Positions 2,009-35,085 of a stretch of 44,977 nt of DNA are shown here, one piece after another. The stretch covers positions 1-44,977 of IMG/VR virus record IMGVR_UViG_3300004633_000002. The stretch is one strand, 5' to 3'. Position numbers and translations under genes: made by a program. Each line of letters starts with the position of its first letter. Position 1 is the stretch's first letter. This DNA comes from a virus (taxonomy: Duplodnaviria; Caudoviricetes). The notes under the pieces are model-generated. The model did no database searches and had not been told where the DNA came from. It saw nothing but the letters and a program-made list of their open reading frames with translations.

Positions 2009-2242
2009 GTGTTCATTGAGGTGCATCGCAAGAAGGACGGCTCGGTGTTTCTGCTGAACGCGGACGCCATCGAGTACGTCTCCGAGGGCATCATCGCCAT
2101 GCGCGGCGACACGATTGATCCGTACTACGTGCGGGAATCGCTTGCCGACCTGAGTCTGCTGCTCGATGCTCGGCGGTATACGCCACAACACAAAAGCCCC
2201 CCACCGGGTAGACCGGTGAGGGGCTTGAATGTGCGCGTCTAG
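2009..2242 (+). CDS. Small FlbD-like hypothetical protein
   Basis: FLLNADAIEYV...YYVRES pattern; strong GGAGGAGG RBS. Confidence 0.6.
   Translation: MFIEVHRKKDGSVFLLNADAIEYVSEGIIAMRGDTIDPYYVRESLADLSLLLDARRYTPQHKSPPPGRPVRGLNVRV
2192..2226 (-). terminator. Intrinsic terminator of the leftward operon (possibly bidirectional)
   Basis: AAGCCCC-CCACCGG/CCGGTGA-GGGGCTT stem with a U-tract on the minus strand, where convergent genes meet. Confidence 0.7.
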
Positions 2243-2568
2243 GCCTCGGCCTGGTTGAATGGAGCACCCCGCGCGGCGCGTGCCTTACGCACGTTCTCGA
2301 CGAGCTTGAGGTAGTGCTCCGGGTGTTGCTGGGCCATCTTGAACTGGCGCCTGGCCTCGCGCTCTGCGCGCATGGCGTTCATCTCGCGCACCAGGCGCTG
2401 GCGCGACTGGCTGATCGTCTCCAGGGCCAGGTCGACGCCCCTGGGCATGGGTGTACGACCCCGTTCCCAGTTGGCGATGGTGTTGGTATGGCAGCCCAGC
2501 AGTTCGGCCAGGTTAGCCTGGCTCAAGAACTGGGCCTTGCGCCACTTGTATAGCTCGCGTCCTTTCAC
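2239..2568 (-). CDS. XRE-family helix-turn-helix regulator
   Basis: LSQANLAELLGCHTNTIANWERG HTH; GTG start at 2568 overlaps the upstream stop (GTGA). Confidence 0.85.
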   Translation of the reverse strand: MKGRELYKWRKAQFLSQANLAELLGCHTNTIANWERGRTPMPRGVDLALETISQSRQRLVREMNAMRAEREARRQFKMAQQHPEHYLKLVENVRKARAARGAPFNQAEA

Positions 2569-2681
2569 GAGTGATCTCGCCTTCTGAAGAATGAGCGGAC
2601 GACGTGCACGATGCCTCCGAAGATGGCGATCCATGCGACCAGGCCGACCAGCAGGGCGGCGTAGGTGATCAGGTCGCTCAT
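2565..2681 (-). CDS. 38-aa single-TM membrane protein (not in ORF track)
   Basis: MSDLITYAALLVGLVAWIAIFGGIVHVVRSFFRRRDHS; ATGA/GTGA coupling on both sides. Confidence 0.7.
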   Translation of the reverse strand: MSDLITYAALLVGLVAWIAIFGGIVHVVRSFFRRRDHS

Positions 2682-2872
2682 TCGAGTGTGAGCGTGGCCA
2701 CCCTGACGGTGACCGGGCCTGAGGTGGCCTTGCGGCCCTTGTTGACCAGCGCTTTGCGCGCCAGCCAGCGGACGAGGTTCCAGTTGATGGCTACCTCGAC
2801 GGGTGTGCCGTTTTCGAGCACCCGCAGCTTGACTACGCCGGTCGGCCAGGCGCCGGCGTTACTGATGGTCAT
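2678..2872 (-). CDS. Hypothetical protein (64 aa)
   Basis: ATG at 2872 overlaps the upstream stop; GGAGG RBS. Confidence 0.7.
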   Translation of the reverse strand: MTISNAGAWPTGVVKLRVLENGTPVEVAINWNLVRWLARKALVNKGRKATSGPVTVRVATLTLE

Positions 2873-3150
2873 GACGTACCTCCGTAGACCCCAAAGAAGC
2901 GCCTGCAGGCGCAGCCTTCGACGCGGCAGGCCGTACCGGCTTCGCCGTGGTGGTAGTGGCGGCTCGGGCCGTGGCCGCACAGGCAGCGGCGCGGGTTGTC
3001 AGCAGGCGTTTCCTGCTGCATGTCCTGCCAGGCTGCTTTGAGCTTGGTCAGGACCACCAGCGCATCGTGGTTGTGGCCGCTGGTGACGTGCCAGATGGCG
3101 TCGTTGATGAGGTCGAATGCCCGCGCCTGGGCGTCGGTGGTAGTGGACAA
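2869..3150 (-). CDS. Hypothetical protein with C-terminal CxCxH..H..C..CxC zinc-binding motif
   Basis: CLCGHGPSRH...CRVEGCAC; TTG start preceded by the conserved AGGAGAGTAGTTCC RBS motif. Confidence 0.75.
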   Translation of the reverse strand: MSTTTDAQARAFDLINDAIWHVTSGHNHDALVVLTKLKAAWQDMQQETPADNPRRCLCGHGPSRHYHHGEAGTACRVEGCACRRFFGVYGGTS

Positions 3151-3195
3151 GGAACTACTCTCCTTTTCTGCGGAACAAGGTTAGTCCAACTGGAA

Positions 3196-4497
3196 CTAGG
3201 CGGCCGAGGCCTGGGCGATGAGTTCACCCAGGCCTCGGAACGCGGGGCTGATAACCGATTGGCCGAGGACCTCGTGAGCCTTCTTCTGGCTCAGGCCTTC
3301 GACCAGGGCGGGCGGGATGCCCTTGATGGCGGCGTGCTCGGCCGCCGTGAACAGGCGGGCCATGCCCGGCCGGGTCGGATGCGCCAGGCGCACGTCGCAC
3401 GAGCCACCCTTCTGGTAGCCACGCCGCAGCGTGGGGACGCTGGTGGCGTCGGCCTGCAGCACGCGGCGGCCTCGGCTGAAGCCGTTGCCGTTGGCCGCAT
3501 CGCGCGCGGCCTTGCGCTGCATGGCTGCCAGCGACTTCCAGCCACCAGCTTTGGCGTCGACGATCTCGCCTAGCGTGGTGTGCTCGCGGCGTGGCTGGAG
3601 GCTGGCCAGGTCGACGTCCAGGCCGCGTGTGACGGCCAGCAGGACCCAGCGCTTGCGGGCTTCGAGCGACCAGGCCGCGCCGTCGACGATGGCCTCGTGG
3701 ACCACGTATCCGAAGCGGCGCAGCCGGGCGCGGATGATGTTGGCGGTGGCGCTGGATGCGTACTCCGGCACGTTCTCCAGCAGGACCACGGCCGGCTGGG
3801 TGGCGCGGATGATTTCGAGGAAGCTCACGGCCAGGTCGGCCGTGGCGTCCTCGTCCTCCTGGCGTTTGAGGCCTTTTTTGGCCTTGCCCGCGCGGCTAGC
3901 TGAGACGCACGGCAGGCCGGCCTCGATGACGTCGACGGTGCCCAGGGCGTTCGGATCGACGTTGCCCAGGTCGTACTCGAAGGTGGTGCCGCCGGTTTGC
4001 AGCGGACCATGTTCGAGCGACTGGCCGAGGTAGCTGGAGTCGCGTTCGACCGCCCAGGCCATCTCAGCGTTGCCCAGGCCGCGCAGCAAAGCGTCGGAGG
4101 CTACGCCACCGCCGTGGCAGATCGACCCCAGGCGCAGGCTCTGACCGGTGGCCAGACGCGACTGGAGTCGACCCAGGCGCTCCTGGGTGGCCTGATCGAG
4201 GTGGTGCACGCTGACGTACACGGCGCCGGGTGTGAAGGCCACCTCGACGCGTTCGACGTCACCCAGTTCGCGGGTGATCAGGTCGACGACCGGTCGGCCC
4301 TGCTTGTGGCTGACTTTGTGGTCGCCGCTGGGCGTGAGCCGCAGGGTGAGCACGTCGCCGGCCACGCTTGACTGGTAGCGCACACCGGCGTCGAAGCCGA
4401 TGTCTCGCAGGCGTTTGCCTTCGAGCCACAGGCGTCGACCGCCTTTGTGGGATGACAGCCGGCGTTCGGCTGCATGTGGGAGAATGGCGGGTGCCAC
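3196..4497 (-). CDS. C5 cytosine DNA methyltransferase with extra N-terminal (SymE/AbrB-like) domain
   Basis: Motif I variant SICHGGG, motif IV GLPC, motif VI LLENV, motif VIII RKRW, motif X LGQSV. Confidence 0.88.
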   Translation of the reverse strand: MAPAILPHAAERRLSSHKGGRRLWLEGKRLRDIGFDAGVRYQSSVAGDVLTLRLTPSGDHKVSHKQGRPVVDLITRELGDVERVEVAFTPGAVYVSVHHLDQATQERLGRLQSRLATGQSLRLGSICHGGGVASDALLRGLGNAEMAWAVERDSSYLGQSLEHGPLQTGGTTFEYDLGNVDPNALGTVDVIEAGLPCVSASRAGKAKKGLKRQEDEDATADLAVSFLEIIRATQPAVVLLENVPEYASSATANIIRARLRRFGYVVHEAIVDGAAWSLEARKRWVLLAVTRGLDVDLASLQPRREHTTLGEIVDAKAGGWKSLAAMQRKAARDAANGNGFSRGRRVLQADATSVPTLRRGYQKGGSCDVRLAHPTRPGMARLFTAAEHAAIKGIPPALVEGLSQKKAHEVLGQSVISPAFRGLGELIAQASAA

Positions 4498-4582
4498 GGG
4501 AGACTACTCCTCCTGTTGGGCAATGGGCGGCCTGGTGCTTGATACGCCAGGCCGCCTGGTCTTGTGCTGCGGGGTGAACTCG

Positions 4583-4644
4583 GGCCGGGCTTGCCACCGG
4601 CCTGCCGCATTACGCCCAGGCCTATGCGGCCTGGGTGACTCTGC
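4583..4644 (-). ncRNA. Twister ribozyme A (P5-type permutation); predicted cleavage between 4612 and 4611
   Basis: GCA GA GUC [A-CCCAGGCC/GGCCUGGG-CG] UAA UGC G GC A GGCCGG UGGCAAGC CCGGCC; pseudoknot GUC/GGC; irregular P1 base. Confidence 0.8.
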
Positions 4645-5473
4645 GCTTGAACGACCGCAGCGAGCGGTCTTTTTTGAAGGTGAATCCGAAGCGATCCTCG
4701 ATGGCGATGAGTTCCTCCAGTAGCTCCGGTCGCTGGTCGGCGCCGACCTGCAGGTCCCCGTTGCAAGCGAGGACGCAGAACTGGCACGACAGCCGCTCAT
4801 TGCCGAACACGTACGCGACGTGCAGCGTCCATCCGTCCAGGGCGCCGGCGACGTCGCCGGCCTGGTACTGGCGGCGCCTGCGTCGAAGCTCGATCTCCGA
4901 GTGTCCGCAGGCTGCCAGGACGTCGCCTATCCGCCAGAACAGCAGCGGATGCCACGTCAGTGCAGTTCGCACGGTGTTGTCGATGCGACGCTTTTCCCAG
5001 GCCTTTTTCTTCGACCGGGCGGTCGACTCCTCGGCGCGGATGCCGACGGCGCATACCACGTTCGAGTAGCGTCGCAAGTAGGCGTCGATGGGATCGCGCT
5101 TCATGTCGCTGGTGCAAAAGCGATTCTGGCTATCCGACCAGGGTCGGGCTTGCTTGCCTTGGGCTTGCATGCGCTCACCCCGAGCGATCCAGTGGTCGAC
5201 CATGTCGCGTCCGTCCGAGCGGCGTACCACCACCAGCGGGATGCCGGCCTGGTCGGCCATCTTCTGGACGTGCCCCGGCGTCTGGCGCCACTCGATCCGA
5301 CCCAGGTCGGCGTGGATGGCGAACAGGTCACCCTTCCAGCCACGCTGCTTGTGCAGTGCGACCAGGGCGACCAGCATGGCCTGGGAGTCTTTGCCACCGC
5401 TGATCGAGATGGCGAGTGCCGCACCACCATCGAGTTGAGCCTCGATGGCCGGCGGGAGGGTTACTTGCTTCAC
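4622..5473 (-). CDS. Phosphoadenosine phosphosulfate (PAPS) reductase-family PP-loop protein (DndC-like family)
   Basis: SISGGKDS PP-loop, HADLG.EW, RFCTSDMK..PI, GIRAEES..R and RLSCQFC Fe-S motif. Confidence 0.85.
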   Translation of the reverse strand: MKQVTLPPAIEAQLDGGAALAISISGGKDSQAMLVALVALHKQRGWKGDLFAIHADLGRIEWRQTPGHVQKMADQAGIPLVVVRRSDGRDMVDHWIARGERMQAQGKQARPWSDSQNRFCTSDMKRDPIDAYLRRYSNVVCAVGIRAEESTARSKKKAWEKRRIDNTVRTALTWHPLLFWRIGDVLAACGHSEIELRRRRRQYQAGDVAGALDGWTLHVAYVFGNERLSCQFCVLACNGDLQVGADQRPELLEELIAIEDRFGFTFKKDRSLRSFKRRVTQAA

Positions 5474-5502
5474 TGACTACTCCAGTGAATGCGGGTGAGA
5501 TT

Positions 5503-5561
5503 GACCGGGCTTGTGACCGGTCTGCCGCATTACGCCAGGCCTGGCGGCCTGGTCACTCTGC
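5503..5561 (-). ncRNA. Twister ribozyme B (P5-type permutation); predicted cleavage between 5532 and 5531
   Basis: GCA GA GUG [A-CCAGGCC/GGCCUGG-CG] UAA UGC G GC A GACCGG UCACAAGC CCGGUC; pseudoknot GUG/CAC; irregular P1 base. Confidence 0.8.
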
Positions 5562-5894
5562 GTCTGGGCAGGAGTCGTAGTGAGCCACGATGGCGCCGTG
5601 GCTGGCGCATCCGTTGCAATGTGGAGCGAACTCCACTTCGGATTCCCATTTGCGAACCTGGGCGTCGACTCGACGAGCCAGCGACTTGCGCTTGAACCAG
5701 TCCGGGTCGGCCATCGACCGACCCTGGAGTTCCCAATAGATCAGGCGAGCGTTGTCTTCGAGTTGCTCGTAGGAGCCGCGCAGCGGACTGGGCTTGAATC
5801 CCAGGCGCTGCAGCCGGCTGACCACTTCGTACTCGCCCCAATCGTGTGCCCATTGGAGCCAGGCTTCGCAGACGTCGAATCGGTCGAAGAACAT
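5553..5894 (-). CDS. Hypothetical phage early protein (113 aa, MFFDRFDVCEAW...)
   Basis: ATG at 5894 in a TGATG overlap; C-terminal CxxC..H..C. Confidence 0.75.
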   Translation of the reverse strand: MFFDRFDVCEAWLQWAHDWGEYEVVSRLQRLGFKPSPLRGSYEQLEDNARLIYWELQGRSMADPDWFKRKSLARRVDAQVRKWESEVEFAPHCNGCASHGAIVAHYDSCPDAE

Positions 5895-6103
5895 CAGACC
5901 CCAGCCTCCGCGATCATCTCGTCGAAGATGGCGCAGTTGAGTTCGTGGAATCCGTAGGCGTCGGCCAGGCCGCAATCCGGGCAGGCCTGGCAGCCGCACA
6001 TGACGTTGCCTCGCCCGTCGACCGACCAGTCATCGTCTGAGCCGCATTCGAGGCAGGCGCCTGGAGTGACTGTGCGCCACCCGGTGAACACTGTTGTTGC
6101 CAT
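5894..6103 (-). CDS. Cys-rich small protein (69 aa)
   Basis: CLEC, CGCQACPDC and HELNC; ATG at 6103 after the conserved RBS hairpin. Confidence 0.75.
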   Translation of the reverse strand: MATTVFTGWRTVTPGACLECGSDDDWSVDGRGNVMCGCQACPDCGLADAYGFHELNCAIFDEMIAEAGV

Positions 6104-6132
6104 TGGAACTACTCTCCAATGCGGATGAAATT

Positions 6133-6188
6133 GACCGGGCTTGGAACCGGTCGGCCGCATTACACCGGCTGCGGCCGGTGTCCTCTGC
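6133..6188 (-). ncRNA. Twister ribozyme C (P5-type permutation); predicted cleavage between 6162 and 6161
   Basis: GCA GA GGA [CACCGGC/GCCGGUG] UAA UGC G GC C GACCGG UUCCAAGC CCGGUC; pseudoknot GGA/UCC. Confidence 0.92.
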
Positions 6189-6189
6189 G

Positions 6190-6486
6190 CTAGGCGATGA
6201 GCGTGCCCATCACCACGTATTCGTAGTCATCCATCCAGCGGACGAGCACGCCGCTGAAGAATGAGTCCGACTGGAAGGCATGCCAGCGACCAGGGGCGTT
6301 TGGTGGGACGTTCTCAGTGAAGTCGCCCAGGTCGTACGTGACACCCTTGAAGCGCACGAACTCGCGTTCGTCGAGTTCAGACTCGCTCAGGTAATCGAAC
6401 TGCTTGAGTTCGGCCGGGGTGAGTTCGTAGCCCCGTACGACTGGACGTGGCTGGTTGTTGGTAATGACGGTAATTTCGGTCGACAT
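6190..6486 (-). CDS. Hypothetical phage early protein (98 aa, MSTEITVITNNQPR...)
   Basis: YELT..E...FDYL, F.FKG..YDLGDF and SDSFFSGVLV pattern recalled from phage early regions; ATG at 6486 with GGGAG RBS. Confidence 0.8.
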   Translation of the reverse strand: MSTEITVITNNQPRPVVRGYELTPAELKQFDYLSESELDEREFVRFKGVTYDLGDFTENVPPNAPGRWHAFQSDSFFSGVLVRWMDDYEYVVMGTLIA

Positions 6487-6517
6487 CGTTCTACTCCCGA
6501 TGAATACGGTTTGAATT

Positions 6518-6573
6518 GGCTGGGCTTGCAACCAGCCTGCCGCATTTCACCGGCCGGGGCCGGTGTGCTCTGC
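6518..6573 (-). ncRNA. Twister ribozyme D (P5-type permutation, A^A site); predicted cleavage between 6547 and 6546
   Basis: GCA GA GCA [CACCGGC/GCCGGUG] AAA UGC G GC A GGCUGG UUGCAAGC CCAGCC; pseudoknot GCA/UGC. Confidence 0.88.
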
Positions 6574-6575
6574 GC

Positions 6576-6842
6576 TCAGTCCTCCCAGGATTCGCAATCG
6601 TCGAAGCAGGGTCCGCTGACTTCGATGTAGTCCCAGAACGTGCCGGGCAGCGACTCGCTCTCCCGAGCGATCCAGAAGCCCTGCTTGCGCGATCCCTTGA
6701 CTCGCTCGCCAGCGTCCCGGTACTGGTCGACGTGCCACATGGCACCGGCCAGTGCGGCCGACTTTGTCGGGTAGACGTCGTTGGAGTTCGGAATGTATCC
6801 GCCGGCCAGACCGGCGATGCAGTGAAAGTGCTTGGTGCTCAC
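6576..6842 (-). CDS. Hypothetical phage early protein (88 aa)
   Basis: GTG start after the AGGAGAGTAGTTCCT motif; stop lies 2 nt before twister D. Confidence 0.75.
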   Translation of the reverse strand: MSTKHFHCIAGLAGGYIPNSNDVYPTKSAALAGAMWHVDQYRDAGERVKGSRKQGFWIARESESLPGTFWDYIEVSGPCFDDCESWED

Positions 6843-6878
6843 TAGGAACTACTCTCCTTGAGTTGTGTTGGATGGGGA

Positions 6879-7139
6879 CTAGGCCAGCAATTCGACTGGC
6901 CAGAATCCAAAGTCCGACCCATCACCGGGGTGGGTACCGAAGTACGTGCCTTCTGGAGCCAGAGTGTCCAGGGCATCGATGAGTTCGTCGACGAGTTCGT
7001 CTGCCTCGGCCACGTTGTAGCCATAGGCTTCGTAGTCCTGGCGCAGCCGGTGGCTGGCTGGGAGTTCGGCCACGAAGGCCTGGATGAGGTGATCTGCCAA
7101 CAGAGTCCCGTGGCTCACGGTACCGATTGAGTACGTCAT
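6879..7139 (-). CDS. Acidic hypothetical phage early protein (86 aa)
   Basis: GTVSHGT...LI.AF and APEGTYFGTHPGDGSDFGFW motifs recalled from phage hypotheticals; conserved RBS motif. Confidence 0.8.
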   Translation of the reverse strand: MTYSIGTVSHGTLLADHLIQAFVAELPASHRLRQDYEAYGYNVAEADELVDELIDALDTLAPEGTYFGTHPGDGSDFGFWPVELLA

Positions 7140-7172
7140 TTGGAACTACTCTCCAAAATGCGGAGTAGGTTT

Positions 7173-7243
7173 GCCTGGGCTTGTGACCAGGCTGCCGCAT
7201 TACACCCGGCCAGCGTTTCTTCTGGACCATGGGTGCACTCTGC
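7173..7243 (-). ncRNA. Twister ribozyme E (P5-type permutation); predicted cleavage between 7202 and 7201
   Basis: GCA GA GUG [CACCC...GGGUG] UAA UGC G GC A GCCUGG UCACAAGC CCAGGC; pseudoknot GUG/CAC. Confidence 0.9.
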
Positions 7244-7741
7244 GAGTACGTGATTCAACCGGCAGGCATTGGACTGGTTACCAACGAGTTCTGGTGGGAC
7301 GTCCATTTCCTGGCTCGAATCCGGGCGACTAGCGCACTAGGACCATACTGGCGGATTCGATGCTGTCAGTGAACGAGCTTCTGAACTACACCCGGAGCCT
7401 TCCCCGTACTTGTGTTGTGTTGTGTGAGTCCCCCTGATCCAATCAGCATTAGGCTTGTCTGGCCTGCGACACCGGACTTGGTTCGGAGCCCGCCGTCCTC
7501 CCCTGGCCACCCACGTTTCAACTTCGTGGTACTGGTTTGGGACTTGGCGCGGTCGATGGTGTAGCTGATGCAGTCCGTCAGGGGACTACGTTTGCCAGCG
7601 TTCGGTCAGCGACTAGGGCCAGGTTCAGATCCTGGGCTTACCGTCTTGGCCACTGCTTACTTGCGTATTCGCTCAGCGTCTCTGCCCGGGGCGTCCGGTG
7701 AGGATCGAGTCCTTTGTGGTGTCGGTCGTTTCCCGCCGACA
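7244..7741 (-). ncRNA. Putative ~500-nt multi-domain structured leader/ncRNA
   Basis: No credible ORF; long-range helices 7578-7587/7427-7437 and 7405-7410/7245-7250 separated by a CAACA-repeat linker (7411-7426); 5' hairpin at 7720-7741. Confidence 0.55.
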
Positions 7742-7746
7742 ACGTC

Positions 7747-7775
7747 AGTAAACCACAACGATTGTGGGTTGTCTA
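7747..7775 (-). promoter_or_regulatory. Sigma70-like promoter of the leftward operon with a palindromic operator in the spacer
   Basis: -35 TAGACA (7775-7770), 17-bp spacer, TGn-TTTACT extended -10 (7752-7747); CCACAA-N3-TTGTGG palindrome at 7753-7767; AT-rich upstream. Confidence 0.6.
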
Positions 7776-7924
7776 TAAACAAGGGACTAGCGAATTGCTA
7801 AATATTTGTAAACGCCCTGGGCACTTCGAGCGCTCTGCGGCCGGGACACCAGCGTCAGATGCGAGCGAGTTCGGGAGGCGACGTCGACTGGGAGGCCGGC
7901 TGGACGTCCAGGGCTGACAGGCCA

Positions 7925-8310
7925 GGCATCGACGCAGCGGAAAGCGACAAAGCGGAAAACCTATCGCATCGAAAAACCTACGCATCGACGCAGGCAGACC
8001 GGCGACTGGTCCGTATGCGCGACACCCTGGTCAGGAGGTATGCCGGCCTGGTCAGCGCTGAGCCTGGGTGGTGTAGGTATCCAGCGCTGGTATCAGGATG
8101 TCCAGGCCAAGGTCAGCGCTGGGTGAGCCTGAGATGCAGCGCTTGATCCCTGGGAAGTGGAAAGCGTGAGCCAACGCAGCAGCACGCCCCAAAGTCGCTC
8201 AAAGGAAGCGCGCGACGTACACCCAGCGAAGCTGGGGGTACGGGTGCCACCATCGCCCCTCACGCTCGCGGCCCAGGAGAACCTATACCCGATCCCCACA
8301 AAAATTCTGT
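7925..8310. repeat. Repeat-rich non-coding region upstream of terS (candidate packaging/terminus region)
   Basis: GCATCGA x3, AAAACCTA x2, CAGCGCT x4 (8053, 8082, 8114, 8137), then GGGGGTACGGG...CCCCACAAAAATT. Confidence 0.45.
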
Positions 8311-8379
8311 ATCGCGGCGAATGGGCGTCTCAACTCCAGTTGGTGTTGAGACTTGACGCTTGCGGTCATAATTGGGAGC

Positions 8380-8871
8380 ATGCCGACGAAGACGCCCCAG
8401 CCGCGTGTGTACAAGAAGCGCAATCTGCAGCAGCCGTGGGAAGCCGAACCGATAGCCCCGCCGCCCAGGACGCGGCGGATTCCGGAGGGGCAATTGCAGC
8501 GGCGCTATCTGGAGGCGCTGCCGAAGTTCTTCACGGTATCGGCGGCGCTGACGTCGGCGGGTGCGGACGCCAGCCAGTTACGCCGCTGGCGTGAGACGGA
8601 CGGGGCGTTCTTAGTGGCCGAGCAGGACGCCCGCAATGCGCTAGCCGACAAGCTCGAAGCGGAGGCGGTGCGGCGTGCGTTCAAGGGGGTGCGCGTGCCG
8701 GTGTATCAGGGTGGGCTGCTGGCCGGGCACATGACCCAGTACTCGGACCAGTTGCTGGTGCTGCTGCTCAAGGCCATGCGCCCCGAGAAGTTCAGGGAGC
8801 GCGCCGAGATCCAGATGACCCAGCCCATAGTGAAGGTGGTGGCCGGCTTCGACCCGTCTCAAGCACTCTAA
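8380..8871 (+). CDS. terS: Terminase small subunit
   Basis: D.LE.EA.RRA..G...PVYQ.G...YSD.LL..LLKA.RPEKFRER pattern; directly upstream of terL. Confidence 0.8.
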   Translation: MPTKTPQPRVYKKRNLQQPWEAEPIAPPPRTRRIPEGQLQRRYLEALPKFFTVSAALTSAGADASQLRRWRETDGAFLVAEQDARNALADKLEAEAVRRAFKGVRVPVYQGGLLAGHMTQYSDQLLVLLLKAMRPEKFRERAEIQMTQPIVKVVAGFDPSQAL

Positions 8872-9055
8872 GCGGTGGCGTACGTGCTGAGCCGCGAGGC
8901 GAACCCTCTCTTGGTACTTCTCTGTGTCAAGGGCCCCATCGGAAACAGGCGGAATCTGACCGCCCCACTGGGGTCAAATGTGACATGCCGGTGACGTCTT
9001 CCAAAATGCCGGCAGATTGGTGCTATTCTGGGCGCCAATGGACGGGCCGTCCTGA

Positions 9056-10465
9056 GTGGCCACCTCCCTGCGTCCGCAGCGATCTGGAGCGCGGCGCGGG
9101 GAGGTGCTTAGCGGGATAACCGCTGAGGTTCAATCGGAAATAGTCCGCACTCTGCCGCAGCAGTCGGCATACATGCCGTTTGGGGCTGCTCAGACGCTGA
9201 TGGAGTATCGCGGCAGGGAGGTCCTGCTGGCTGGACCGGCGGGCACGGGCAAGTCCAGGGCGGCGTTGGAGAAGCTTTCGTTCGTGGCCTATCGGCGGCC
9301 GATTCGGGCCGCCATCGTGCGGAAGGTCAGGAAGTCGCTGACCCAGGCGGCGCTGGTCACGTACGAGAAGAAGGTGCTGCCGGAGCCCTCGGGGGTGCGC
9401 TTCTGGACCGAGGATCAGGAGTACCGCTACCCCAACGGGGCCATCGTCGCCCTGGCCGGGCTCGACGACCCCGAGAAGGTCAAGTCAACGGAGTTCGATC
9501 TGATTTATGTCCAAGAAGCCACCGAACTTGATCAACTGGATTGGGAGTTGCTGGTGTCTCGACTCCGCAACGGGGTCTTGTCCTATCAGCAGATCATCGC
9601 CGATTGCAACCCCGCCGATCCTTACCACTGGCTCAAGCAACGTTGTGACCGTGGTGAGTGCCTCCTGCTCGATACACGGCACGAAGACAACCCTCTACTG
9701 TTTGACCACCAGGCAGGAGCTTGGACCGAGTTCGGCGAGCAGTACCTGAAGACCCTCGACACCCTGACCGGTTACCTGTACCAGCGCCTGCGGCTGGGCC
9801 AGTGGGTGGCCGCCGACGGGATGTTCTTCACCGAGTGGAACCCCGAGGTGCATGTGGTGCAGGGCTTCGACATTCCGGAGCATTGGCCCAGGTGGACCTC
9901 GACGGACTACGGCTTCGCGGCGCCGTGGTGCACGTTGTGGTTTGCCCGCGATCCCGAGGGCAATCGGCCGGTGTACGTGTACCGCGAGCGTTACGCGGTG
10001 GAGGTGCGCGATGAAGAACAAGCTGAGATCATTTCATCCGCGAGCGAAGGCGAGCGGATATTGGCGAATGTTTTGGACCCGAGCATGTTCAACGCTCGGA
10101 CGGAGCAGAACAAGCCCTCCATCGCCCAGGTTTACGCATCTGGCGGAATTTCCAATATTGTTCAGGGTTTCAACAACCGCCGCACCGGTTGGAGCATCAT
10201 CCGCCGTGCACTCGCCATTCCAGACTCAGGCACTTCGGAACCTGGGGCTGGACTTCCTCGGTTGCGGATCTTTGCGGACGCGTGCCCGAATCTGGAGCGG
10301 ACACTACCTGCAATGGTGAGAGATCCGCTCGATCCGGAGGACGTGGCCGACAAGCTGCACGGCAAGAAGACCGAGGACCACGCCCCGGATGCATTGCGCT
10401 ATGGCATGGCCATCGAGGCCGGCCCGAGCGCCGACGAGACGGTCGGCTCGGTGAGTTGGGGCTGA
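9056..10465 (+). CDS. terL: Terminase large subunit
   Basis: Walker A GPAGTGKS, Walker B IYVQEA, motif III DCNP, nuclease motifs TDYG and DHAPDALRY. Confidence 0.95.
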   Translation: MATSLRPQRSGARRGEVLSGITAEVQSEIVRTLPQQSAYMPFGAAQTLMEYRGREVLLAGPAGTGKSRAALEKLSFVAYRRPIRAAIVRKVRKSLTQAALVTYEKKVLPEPSGVRFWTEDQEYRYPNGAIVALAGLDDPEKVKSTEFDLIYVQEATELDQLDWELLVSRLRNGVLSYQQIIADCNPADPYHWLKQRCDRGECLLLDTRHEDNPLLFDHQAGAWTEFGEQYLKTLDTLTGYLYQRLRLGQWVAADGMFFTEWNPEVHVVQGFDIPEHWPRWTSTDYGFAAPWCTLWFARDPEGNRPVYVYRERYAVEVRDEEQAEIISSASEGERILANVLDPSMFNARTEQNKPSIAQVYASGGISNIVQGFNNRRTGWSIIRRALAIPDSGTSEPGAGLPRLRIFADACPNLERTLPAMVRDPLDPEDVADKLHGKKTEDHAPDALRYGMAIEAGPSADETVGSVSWG

Positions 10466-34576: not shown

Positions 34577-34843
34577 CTACCAAGCGTTGCGAGCTACGCC
34601 GATCACGCGCAGCTTGCCGTCGGTGAGCATGGCCATGATGCACAACCTACAGCGGCGCCTGGCGCGCACGCCGCTGCCCGTGCCCCAGACGCCGATCCGC
34701 CCGCAGTAGCTGTACTCGCTCCTGCCGTCGAACCAGTGCTCCAGGCGCGGGGCGTACTCGTAGTCATACTTCGCGTCACTGGGTCGCCAGCCTGCCGTGC
34801 GCGGCCACTCGGGCTGATCCTGGGTGAGGTCGGGCTGGCTCAT
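34577..34843 (-). CDS. Hypothetical protein with H..C..CxxC motif
   Basis: ATGA-coupled last gene of a leftward operon. Confidence 0.65.
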   Translation of the reverse strand: MSQPDLTQDQPEWPRTAGWRPSDAKYDYEYAPRLEHWFDGRSEYSYCGRIGVWGTGSGVRARRRCRLCIMAMLTDGKLRVIGVARNAW

Positions 34844-35085
34844 TCGGTCGGCGGCTGCAGGGGCGGCAGGCGGTACTGGCGCCGCAGCTTTCGGAGCTTC
34901 TCCCAGGCCTCACCTTCAGACCTGGCGTAGCTGATTCTGCGCTCGCCTTCGACCATCAGCGACGCGCACCAGCGGCCGTCAGCGGTGCGTTGGTACACCG
35001 AGCCCTGGTGGTTGCGCCGCTTGGGCGTGGCCTCCGACCAGACCTCGCCCGAGCCGCCGCAGTTGGGGCAGACTTGCCAGGTCAC
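34840..35085 (-). CDS. Small protein: CxxCxGxG motif plus integrase arm-binding-like domain
   Basis: CPNCGGSG followed by GSVYQR..DGRW.A....G.R...Y....EA.EKL; GTG start in a GTGA overlap. Confidence 0.65.
   Translation of the reverse strand: MTWQVCPNCGGSGEVWSEATPKRRNHQGSVYQRTADGRWCASLMVEGERRISYARSEGEAWEKLRKLRRQYRLPPLQPPTE

Follow-up and report, generated by a model that had tools for sequence, protein, structure and literature searches.

The gene-free stretch of about 500 bases that heads the early operon of this phage is a real, uncatalogued, structured non-coding RNA, as judged from comparisons between sequences in which the support is good and the sequences are few. Its build resembles a string of separable modules more than a single fixed fold. 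The window, that is the whole stretch of DNA analysed, is a complete virus record of 44,977 bases with direct terminal repeats. Terminase, HK97-type capsid and integrase genes are present, and the integrase gene points to a temperate phage. The leader and the operon behind it are laid out as follows:

7745-7245, minus strand: leader, gene-free, about 500 bases, at the head of the early operon
7175..7244, minus strand: first Twister-P5 ribozyme (Rfam RF02684)
2194..7139, minus strand: early operon, running leftward with its start at about 7740, from gene calls and a terminator scan
6520-6574, 6135-6189, 5505-5562 and 4585-4645, minus strand: four further Twister-P5 ribozymes (Rfam)
2226-2194, minus strand: early-operon terminator, from the terminator scan

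The early-operon genes comprise small unknowns, a PAPS-reductase-domain gene, a C5 methyltransferase and an HTH gene, and the five Twister-P5 matches that separate them all lie above the Rfam cut-off. Regarding the host, one of the 120 capsid relatives among the matches listed carries a Chloroflexota label (90% identical), which is a hint only. GTDB scans found no close prophage; the first returned none and the second, with 28 loci, a single contig at 58% in an Actinomycetota bin. The collections of cultured phages and of plasmids yielded nothing beyond short chance matches, and the nearest cultured terminases are less than 60% identical. Around the packaging genes, a short conserved motif was seen upstream of the terminase genes (8228-8245 in the window and, in most relatives, some 100-900 nt ahead of terL), which is possibly a packaging or end signal. 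The distance of terS (window 8353-8871) to terL and to the early promoter varies in comparison with L008, L012-L016 and L018-L020, and in L012 terS directly adjoins the promoter of the leader.

Three elements mark the start of the leader:

7747..7775, minus strand: putative early promoter, from a by-eye alignment with the promoter regions of 11 related loci
7753..7767, no strand assigned: perfect palindrome in the promoter spacer, the only perfect copy in the window
7720..7741, minus strand: leader 5' hairpin (fold z -1.8, with 12 of 200 shuffles equal or better)

An early promoter is likely at 7747-7775, where the preliminary description had placed it. Its -35-like (7775-7770) and -10-like (7752-7747) boxes are imperfect: a consensus promoter scan made no call there and T replaces the conserved second A of the -10 box, but this non-consensus box aligns with the -10-like boxes of the relatives. 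We infer a transcription start at about 7740-7743. The palindrome is likely a repressor operator and recurs at the equivalent place in L007 and L008; its two matches at two mismatches, against 1.19 expected, are non-significant when taken alone. The 5' hairpin, also proposed before, is present at 7741-7720; it is 59% identical to that of L023 and its sequence is variable among relatives.

The leader contains no credible open reading frame. Those of 23-64 codons have, by eye, no matching counterpart in the related loci L023 or L012, and many gaps of 1-2 nt in the pairwise leader alignment with L023 break the reading frames, in agreement with the earlier claim of a non-coding leader of about 500 nt. 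The Rfam search that had been suggested as a check yielded no match to any catalogued family up to E 10 in 6900-9100, where the adjoining twister alone reaches threshold. Rfam and ARAGORN detected no riboswitch, group I/II intron, RNase P, tmRNA, SRP, 6S or pRNA. Several resemblances that were noticed by eye (RNase P, a group I core, a cobalamin riboswitch, a decayed hammerhead) were rejected, being neither conserved nor supported by Rfam. A tRNA-like domain 2 was dropped as well, as its T-loop-like sequence is not kept in L023 and ARAGORN was blank.

Single-sequence folding is at chance, with minimum-free-energy z values of -0.11 for the whole leader, 0.00 for domain 1 and -0.57 for domain 2 (39 of 100, 87 of 200 and 60 of 200 shuffles, respectively, folding equally well). 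The case for a fold above chance therefore comes from the comparison across homologues. These were obtained from terminase searches with 22 and 80 loci. L023 carries the whole leader (71% identity over 557 columns) and L012 carries domain 1 only, so that the type-A (domain-1) sequences are three: window, L023 and L012. For a covariation test that takes phylogeny into account, three is too small a number. No further type-A copies appeared in four more pattern scans, three viral and one metagenomic; the metagenomic one gave nine stretches, namely the three known type-A sequences and six unrelated ones. Model R1 recovered only its three training sequences from 81 and 100 sources and 50 whole records, and model R2 brought up no new leader, its match in L060 falling within a gene. 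Identity to L023 is 74% in domain 1 and 67% in domain 2, compared with 51% in adjacent intergenic DNA and a shuffled baseline of 52%. The third codon positions of TerL are 69% identical to those of L023. Because leader identity is about the same, conservation alone is weak evidence for the window-L023 pair.

The modules between the 5' hairpin and the ribozyme are:

7591..7700, minus strand: 5' subdomain, aligned in the window, L023 and L012
7427..7587, minus strand: domain 1 core, nested helices P1-P6 in the consensus fold
7411..7426, minus strand: C/A-rich single-stranded linker, unpaired in folds
7245..7410, minus strand: domain 2, with a closing helix, the stem 7375-7370/7305-7300 and a three-way junction
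7315..7360, minus strand: three-way junction module, recurring across leader types

The strongest evidence was obtained for the domain 1 core. Unguided consensus folding of the three sequences gave a z of -8.37, with none of 100 column shuffles as good, and terS coding controls in the same test gave -1.07 and +0.30. Compensatory changes were found in 15 of the 37 predicted pairs against 7.8 ± 2.5 expected (1 of 100 shuffles). A structure of 64 pairs, chosen after viewing the three domain-1 sequences, has 20 pairs changed on both sides, a number reached by none of 500 shuffles and compared with at most six when the structure is slid; 187 of its 192 cells pair if shifts of up to two columns are allowed, which is a fitted figure. 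The window-L023 pair alone gives a modest signal: three helices have at least two compensatory changes, a result that 1 of 60 shuffles reaches, the total changes being matched by 2 of 60 and the helix count by 6 of 60.

The closing helix of domain 1 (7587-7578/7437-7427) and the helices nested in it (7569-7564/7447-7442 and 7562-7558/7473-7469), which had been noticed in the single sequence, are present and belong to a domain that covaries across three phages. The CCAAGUCC repeat noticed with them is not kept in L023 or L012. The core also has an invariant internal-loop CGGACUG, an A-rich loop on P5 and an AGACA-loop hairpin, P6. The 5' subdomain consists of a small hairpin, an invariant 3-bp GNRA hairpin (7667-7658) and the stem 7655-7649/7613-7607 with two compensatory pairs; as a whole it is no better than shuffles (consensus z -0.34). 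Homology of this subdomain to type-E leaders was considered, and the comparison gave no support.

The opposite strand also folds strongly in the consensus, with z values of -6.65 and -3.28. As it folds nearly as well, the assignment to the minus strand rests on the ribozymes, the genes, the kept GNRA loop and the excess of G-U pairs. G-U exceeds A-C by 8 to 1 in eight in-register helices, which were themselves chosen on the minus strand, a source of bias. The same observations bear on the idea that the stretch is not a functional RNA at all, being instead some DNA feature close to the packaging genes or a spacer in decay with incidental hairpins. Folding at chance in the single sequence, the folding of the opposite strand and the distance of about 600 nt from terS would all suit it. 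Long-range nested helices that covary, the GNRA loop, the G-U bias and the location of the leader, with a promoter-like site before it and a ribozyme behind it on the same strand, would not, and we regard it as very improbable.

Behind domain 1, the CA-rich linker at 7426-7411 is present and unpaired as described earlier, and similar linkers were found in L023, L007, L017 and L286. The domain-2 closing helix (7410-7405/7250-7245) could likewise be confirmed, and its sequence is wholly different in L023. The consensus of window and L023 over domain 2 has a z of -2.86 (1 of 100 shuffles), with 11 of 37 pairs compensatory against 3.8 expected (0 of 100 shuffles). Two helices proposed in this domain, UCCGGG/CCCGGA and UGGAC/GUCCA, are missing from those kept in both sequences; the covarying alternatives are 7375-7370/7305-7300 and 7360-7356/7319-7315. 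The junction module is composed of a stem, a CCAGUA[A/U]GG hairpin (7351-7343), a linker and a GUG-led hairpin. It occurs in five leaders (window, L023, L011, L136/L286 and L275/L283), with two unrelated chance matches among 304 sequences, and eight of its 13 pairs are compensatory, as in none of 500 shuffles. The comparison of homologues, which had been put forward as a check on the leader, thus revealed compensatory pairs both in domain 1 and in the domain-2 junction.

Candidate long-range (pseudoknot) pairings are invariant in the two sequences holding both strands, window and L023. Among them are the complementary stretches 7576-7571/7276-7271, which could pair within or between molecules. 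Such contacts matter for an alternative in which the released RNA forms an RNA-only assembly (dimer or cage) similar to ROOL and GOLLD, with its invariant loops making the intermolecular contacts. Its size class, phage origin, multi-junction build and the arrangement of variable 5' and more shared 3' modules are alike. However, 7576-7571/7276-7271 shows zero covariation, L012 retains one strand and has no domain 2, there is no Rfam match and no tRNA island is adjacent. Overall, this makes an assembly an unlikely explanation.

The first twister scores 50.2 bits against a gathering cut-off of 37.6, and its core positions match the consensus. We take the predicted cut to lie between U7202 and A7201, as placed from twister chemistry with AAUGCGG located at 7201. 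Some further observations concern the RNA behind this cut. The predicted post-cut 5' end (7201-7157) finds its complement about 40 nt downstream, and this is kept in L023, with similar 5'-end complementarity behind the twisters at 6135 and 5505. Such pairing would hide the 5'-OH end in a stem that lies immediately before the ribosome-binding site. The binding site of the first gene lies inside a predicted 7-bp hairpin (7156-7138). Between the twisters (window 4585-7244), each piece would start with a 5'-OH and finish with a 3' cyclic phosphate. Ends of this type are substrates of RtcB-type ligases, and circular mRNAs from the inter-twister pieces are possible. In an account of hammerhead clusters, the parts concerned report that no circular mRNAs were found (PMC3088659).

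Related phages have long leaders in the same slot. Ten were identified, of about five types with modules in common and with lengths of 400-680 nt in several types. L007 and L017 form type B, whose first-domain consensus has a z of -4.65; among the others, L011 and L283 are related, as are L286 and L060, and L302 completes the set. The terminase searches did not supply L286 and L302, which were picked up in a scan with a twister pattern (128 of about 340 stretches). Short motifs, including the AGACA-loop hairpin, reappear in different leader types. A ribozyme match ends eight of the ten long leaders, three of these matches being below the Rfam cut-off: a twister above the cut-off ends those of the window, L023, L007, L017 and L283, a twister of 26.4 bits that of L011, and a type II hammerhead those of L012 (32.8 bits) and L060 (32.1 bits). 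In the case of L286 and L302, no ribozyme match was found at the leader end, and the leaders run into the first gene. Domain 1 is followed by a twister in two phages and by a hammerhead in the third (L012). This swap of ribozyme class behind the same domain suggests that cutting matters, and not which ribozyme does it. The earlier proposal of an unrecognised non-coding RNA ending at a ribozyme is supported by covariation, the blank Rfam search and the ribozyme-ended leaders.

Eight relatives have, as read by eye, short leaders (L008, L013, L014, L015, L016, L018, L019 and L020), and none showed a ribozyme ahead of its first gene; for L016 and L019 the scan covered twister only. They come from the loci read by eye, beside which about 30 others have upstream DNA of sufficient length. 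The clade is not resolved in the TerL tree, and leader presence is patchy.

Some details of the relatives deserve mention on their own. The long leader of L302 contains at 3181-3278 a tRNA-like module ending in CCA, with a weak tRNA-Sec match (E 0.6) and no ARAGORN call. The first ribozyme of L012 (L132 2735-2881), a type II hammerhead match, admits a drawing in which stem III has 11 bp and encloses about 85 nt, with a GAUAA core variant. In the below-cut-off hammerhead of L060 (8149-8209), C replaces the conserved U of the CUGA turn. In L286, a folded-looking stretch (725-812) lies between the junction module and the first gene, and Rfam is blank where relatives have a ribozyme; it is a candidate unknown ribozyme. 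L277, an unrelated twister-bearing phage, seems to have a long gene-free stretch (600-1160) before its first early gene.

These leaders allow two further explanations to be weighed. The preliminary description had offered a sensor gating the operon; here a ligand would switch the twister, and hence the first genes, on or off. Domain 2 does end at the twister edge in the window and in L023, and in both the leader could form a few pairings with the twister, but none of them has a compensatory change. Moreover, L012 joins domain 1 to a hammerhead with no domain 2, and the first downstream genes differ among leader carriers. Since a leader, once cut off, cannot steer downstream translation and no leader-ribozyme pairing covaries, we consider a gating sensor extremely improbable. 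The second explanation is that one of the leader domains is a catalytic RNA of its own, as yet undescribed, which cleaves itself or ligates. The context is rich in ribozymes, and parts of one survey describe new ribozyme classes beside ribozyme-associated genes, along with other structures from such places that did not cleave (PMC6765202). Invariant unpaired motifs exist in domain 1 and in the junction, and L286 has the junction and yet no known ribozyme before its first gene. Set against an intact twister match already directly behind the leader, and with no known catalytic core recognisable by Rfam, a catalytic domain appears very unlikely.

Action in trans is favored because the leader is optional and exchangeable like the neighboring accessory early genes. 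Our best explanation, held tentatively as one that falls a little short of probable, is an uncatalogued, modular early RNA that is released by a ribozyme and acts in trans, its likely role being that of a protein decoy or scaffold. On lytic entry, the early operon, under repressor control, would be transcribed from about 7740. The twister would likely cut at 7202 and free a leader RNA of about 540 nt, whose 5' triphosphate hairpin and 3' cyclic phosphate would slow exonucleases. The freed RNA could then bind host proteins in trans during early lytic growth as a stable decoy or scaffold. Two considerations temper this explanation. Firstly, ribozymes also lie between ordinary genes here, so the first twister may serve the downstream mRNA and not the leader. 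Secondly, close relatives do without the leader, which is thus dispensable. A broader version, which is possible though doubtful, would have soil phages carry in the first early-operon slot an interchangeable arsenal of large non-coding RNAs with shuffled modules, matured by any self-cleaving ribozyme, as RNA counterparts of early anti-defence proteins. If true, this arsenal would be a new class of phage effector and would give twister and hammerhead ribozymes a concrete job in phages.

The chief competitor of the decoy or scaffold is a cis-acting element. Like put, which is about 70 nt long, the leader would act on the transcribing RNA polymerase and suppress pausing or termination over the 5.5-kb operon, the ribozyme only tidying mRNA ends. 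The two long leaders that enter the first gene with no ribozyme detected are compatible with this, as is the position directly behind the inferred early promoter of a temperate phage, where put lies according to parts of its description (PMC9378689). From the leader to 2226, however, the operon has no strong intrinsic terminator, minus-strand matches having 5-pair stems only, and leaders of 400-680 nt in several unrelated types that are absent in eight relatives with similar operons fit such an element poorly. We rate it as unlikely.

Large structured phage RNAs are rare, and this locus ties an uncatalogued one to an exchangeable ribozyme that would fix its 3' end. The host is uncultured; in vitro synthesis can give the leader RNA its natural ends, and for comparison there are natural variants that have the modules, lack them or have them swapped. 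Among the open-licence papers listed, none describes this RNA in its title or abstract start; supplementary motif tables could hold parts of it.

Compared with put, the leader is alike by position, just behind an early promoter that is itself inferred. It is much longer, is followed by a ribozyme and does not match in sequence. The part of the literature on HK022 that concerns put presents it as a structured nascent RNA behind a temperate-phage early promoter (PMC9378689). A second comparison is with GOLLD and ROOL, large multi-junction orphan RNAs of phages and prophages, ROOL averaging 581 nt (parts of PMC12286853 and PMC5737381). GOLLD's 3' region is conserved and its 5' region less so, and it forms cages (part of PMC12286853). 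These are the nearest kind of RNA to the leader, which is phage-encoded, about 540 nt long and has many junctions. Membership fails on the model match, as neither the leader nor those of the relatives gave a sequence or covariance-model match. There is no tRNA island, the single tRNA gene of the window, tRNA-Leu(CAG) at 34823-34915, being 27 kb away and eight related loci having none. The 3' end of the leader would be set by a self-cleaving ribozyme, and its modules are shuffled among relatives; its candidate pseudoknot pairings are invariant in window and L023.

Theta ribozymes serve in the 3' trimming of tRNA. In gut phages they are described, in parts of the reports, as small and adjacent to phage tRNAs (PMC10879173, 10.1101/2023.06.13.544163). 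There an HDV-like ribozyme is joined to a known RNA, the tRNA, whereas here a twister or hammerhead is joined to an uncatalogued one. The ribozyme array itself is ordinary. Clustered hammerhead and twister ribozymes that split prophage transcripts have been described, with mRNA processing as the proposed role (parts of PMC3088659 and PMC6765202), and what genomic self-cleaving ribozymes do in bacteria and phages is regarded as largely unsettled (part of PMC6765202). As in those clusters, several self-cleaving ribozymes would cut one phage transcript into gene-sized pieces; unlike in those clusters, where the portions concerned place protein genes between the ribozymes, the first piece here would be a large conserved non-coding RNA.
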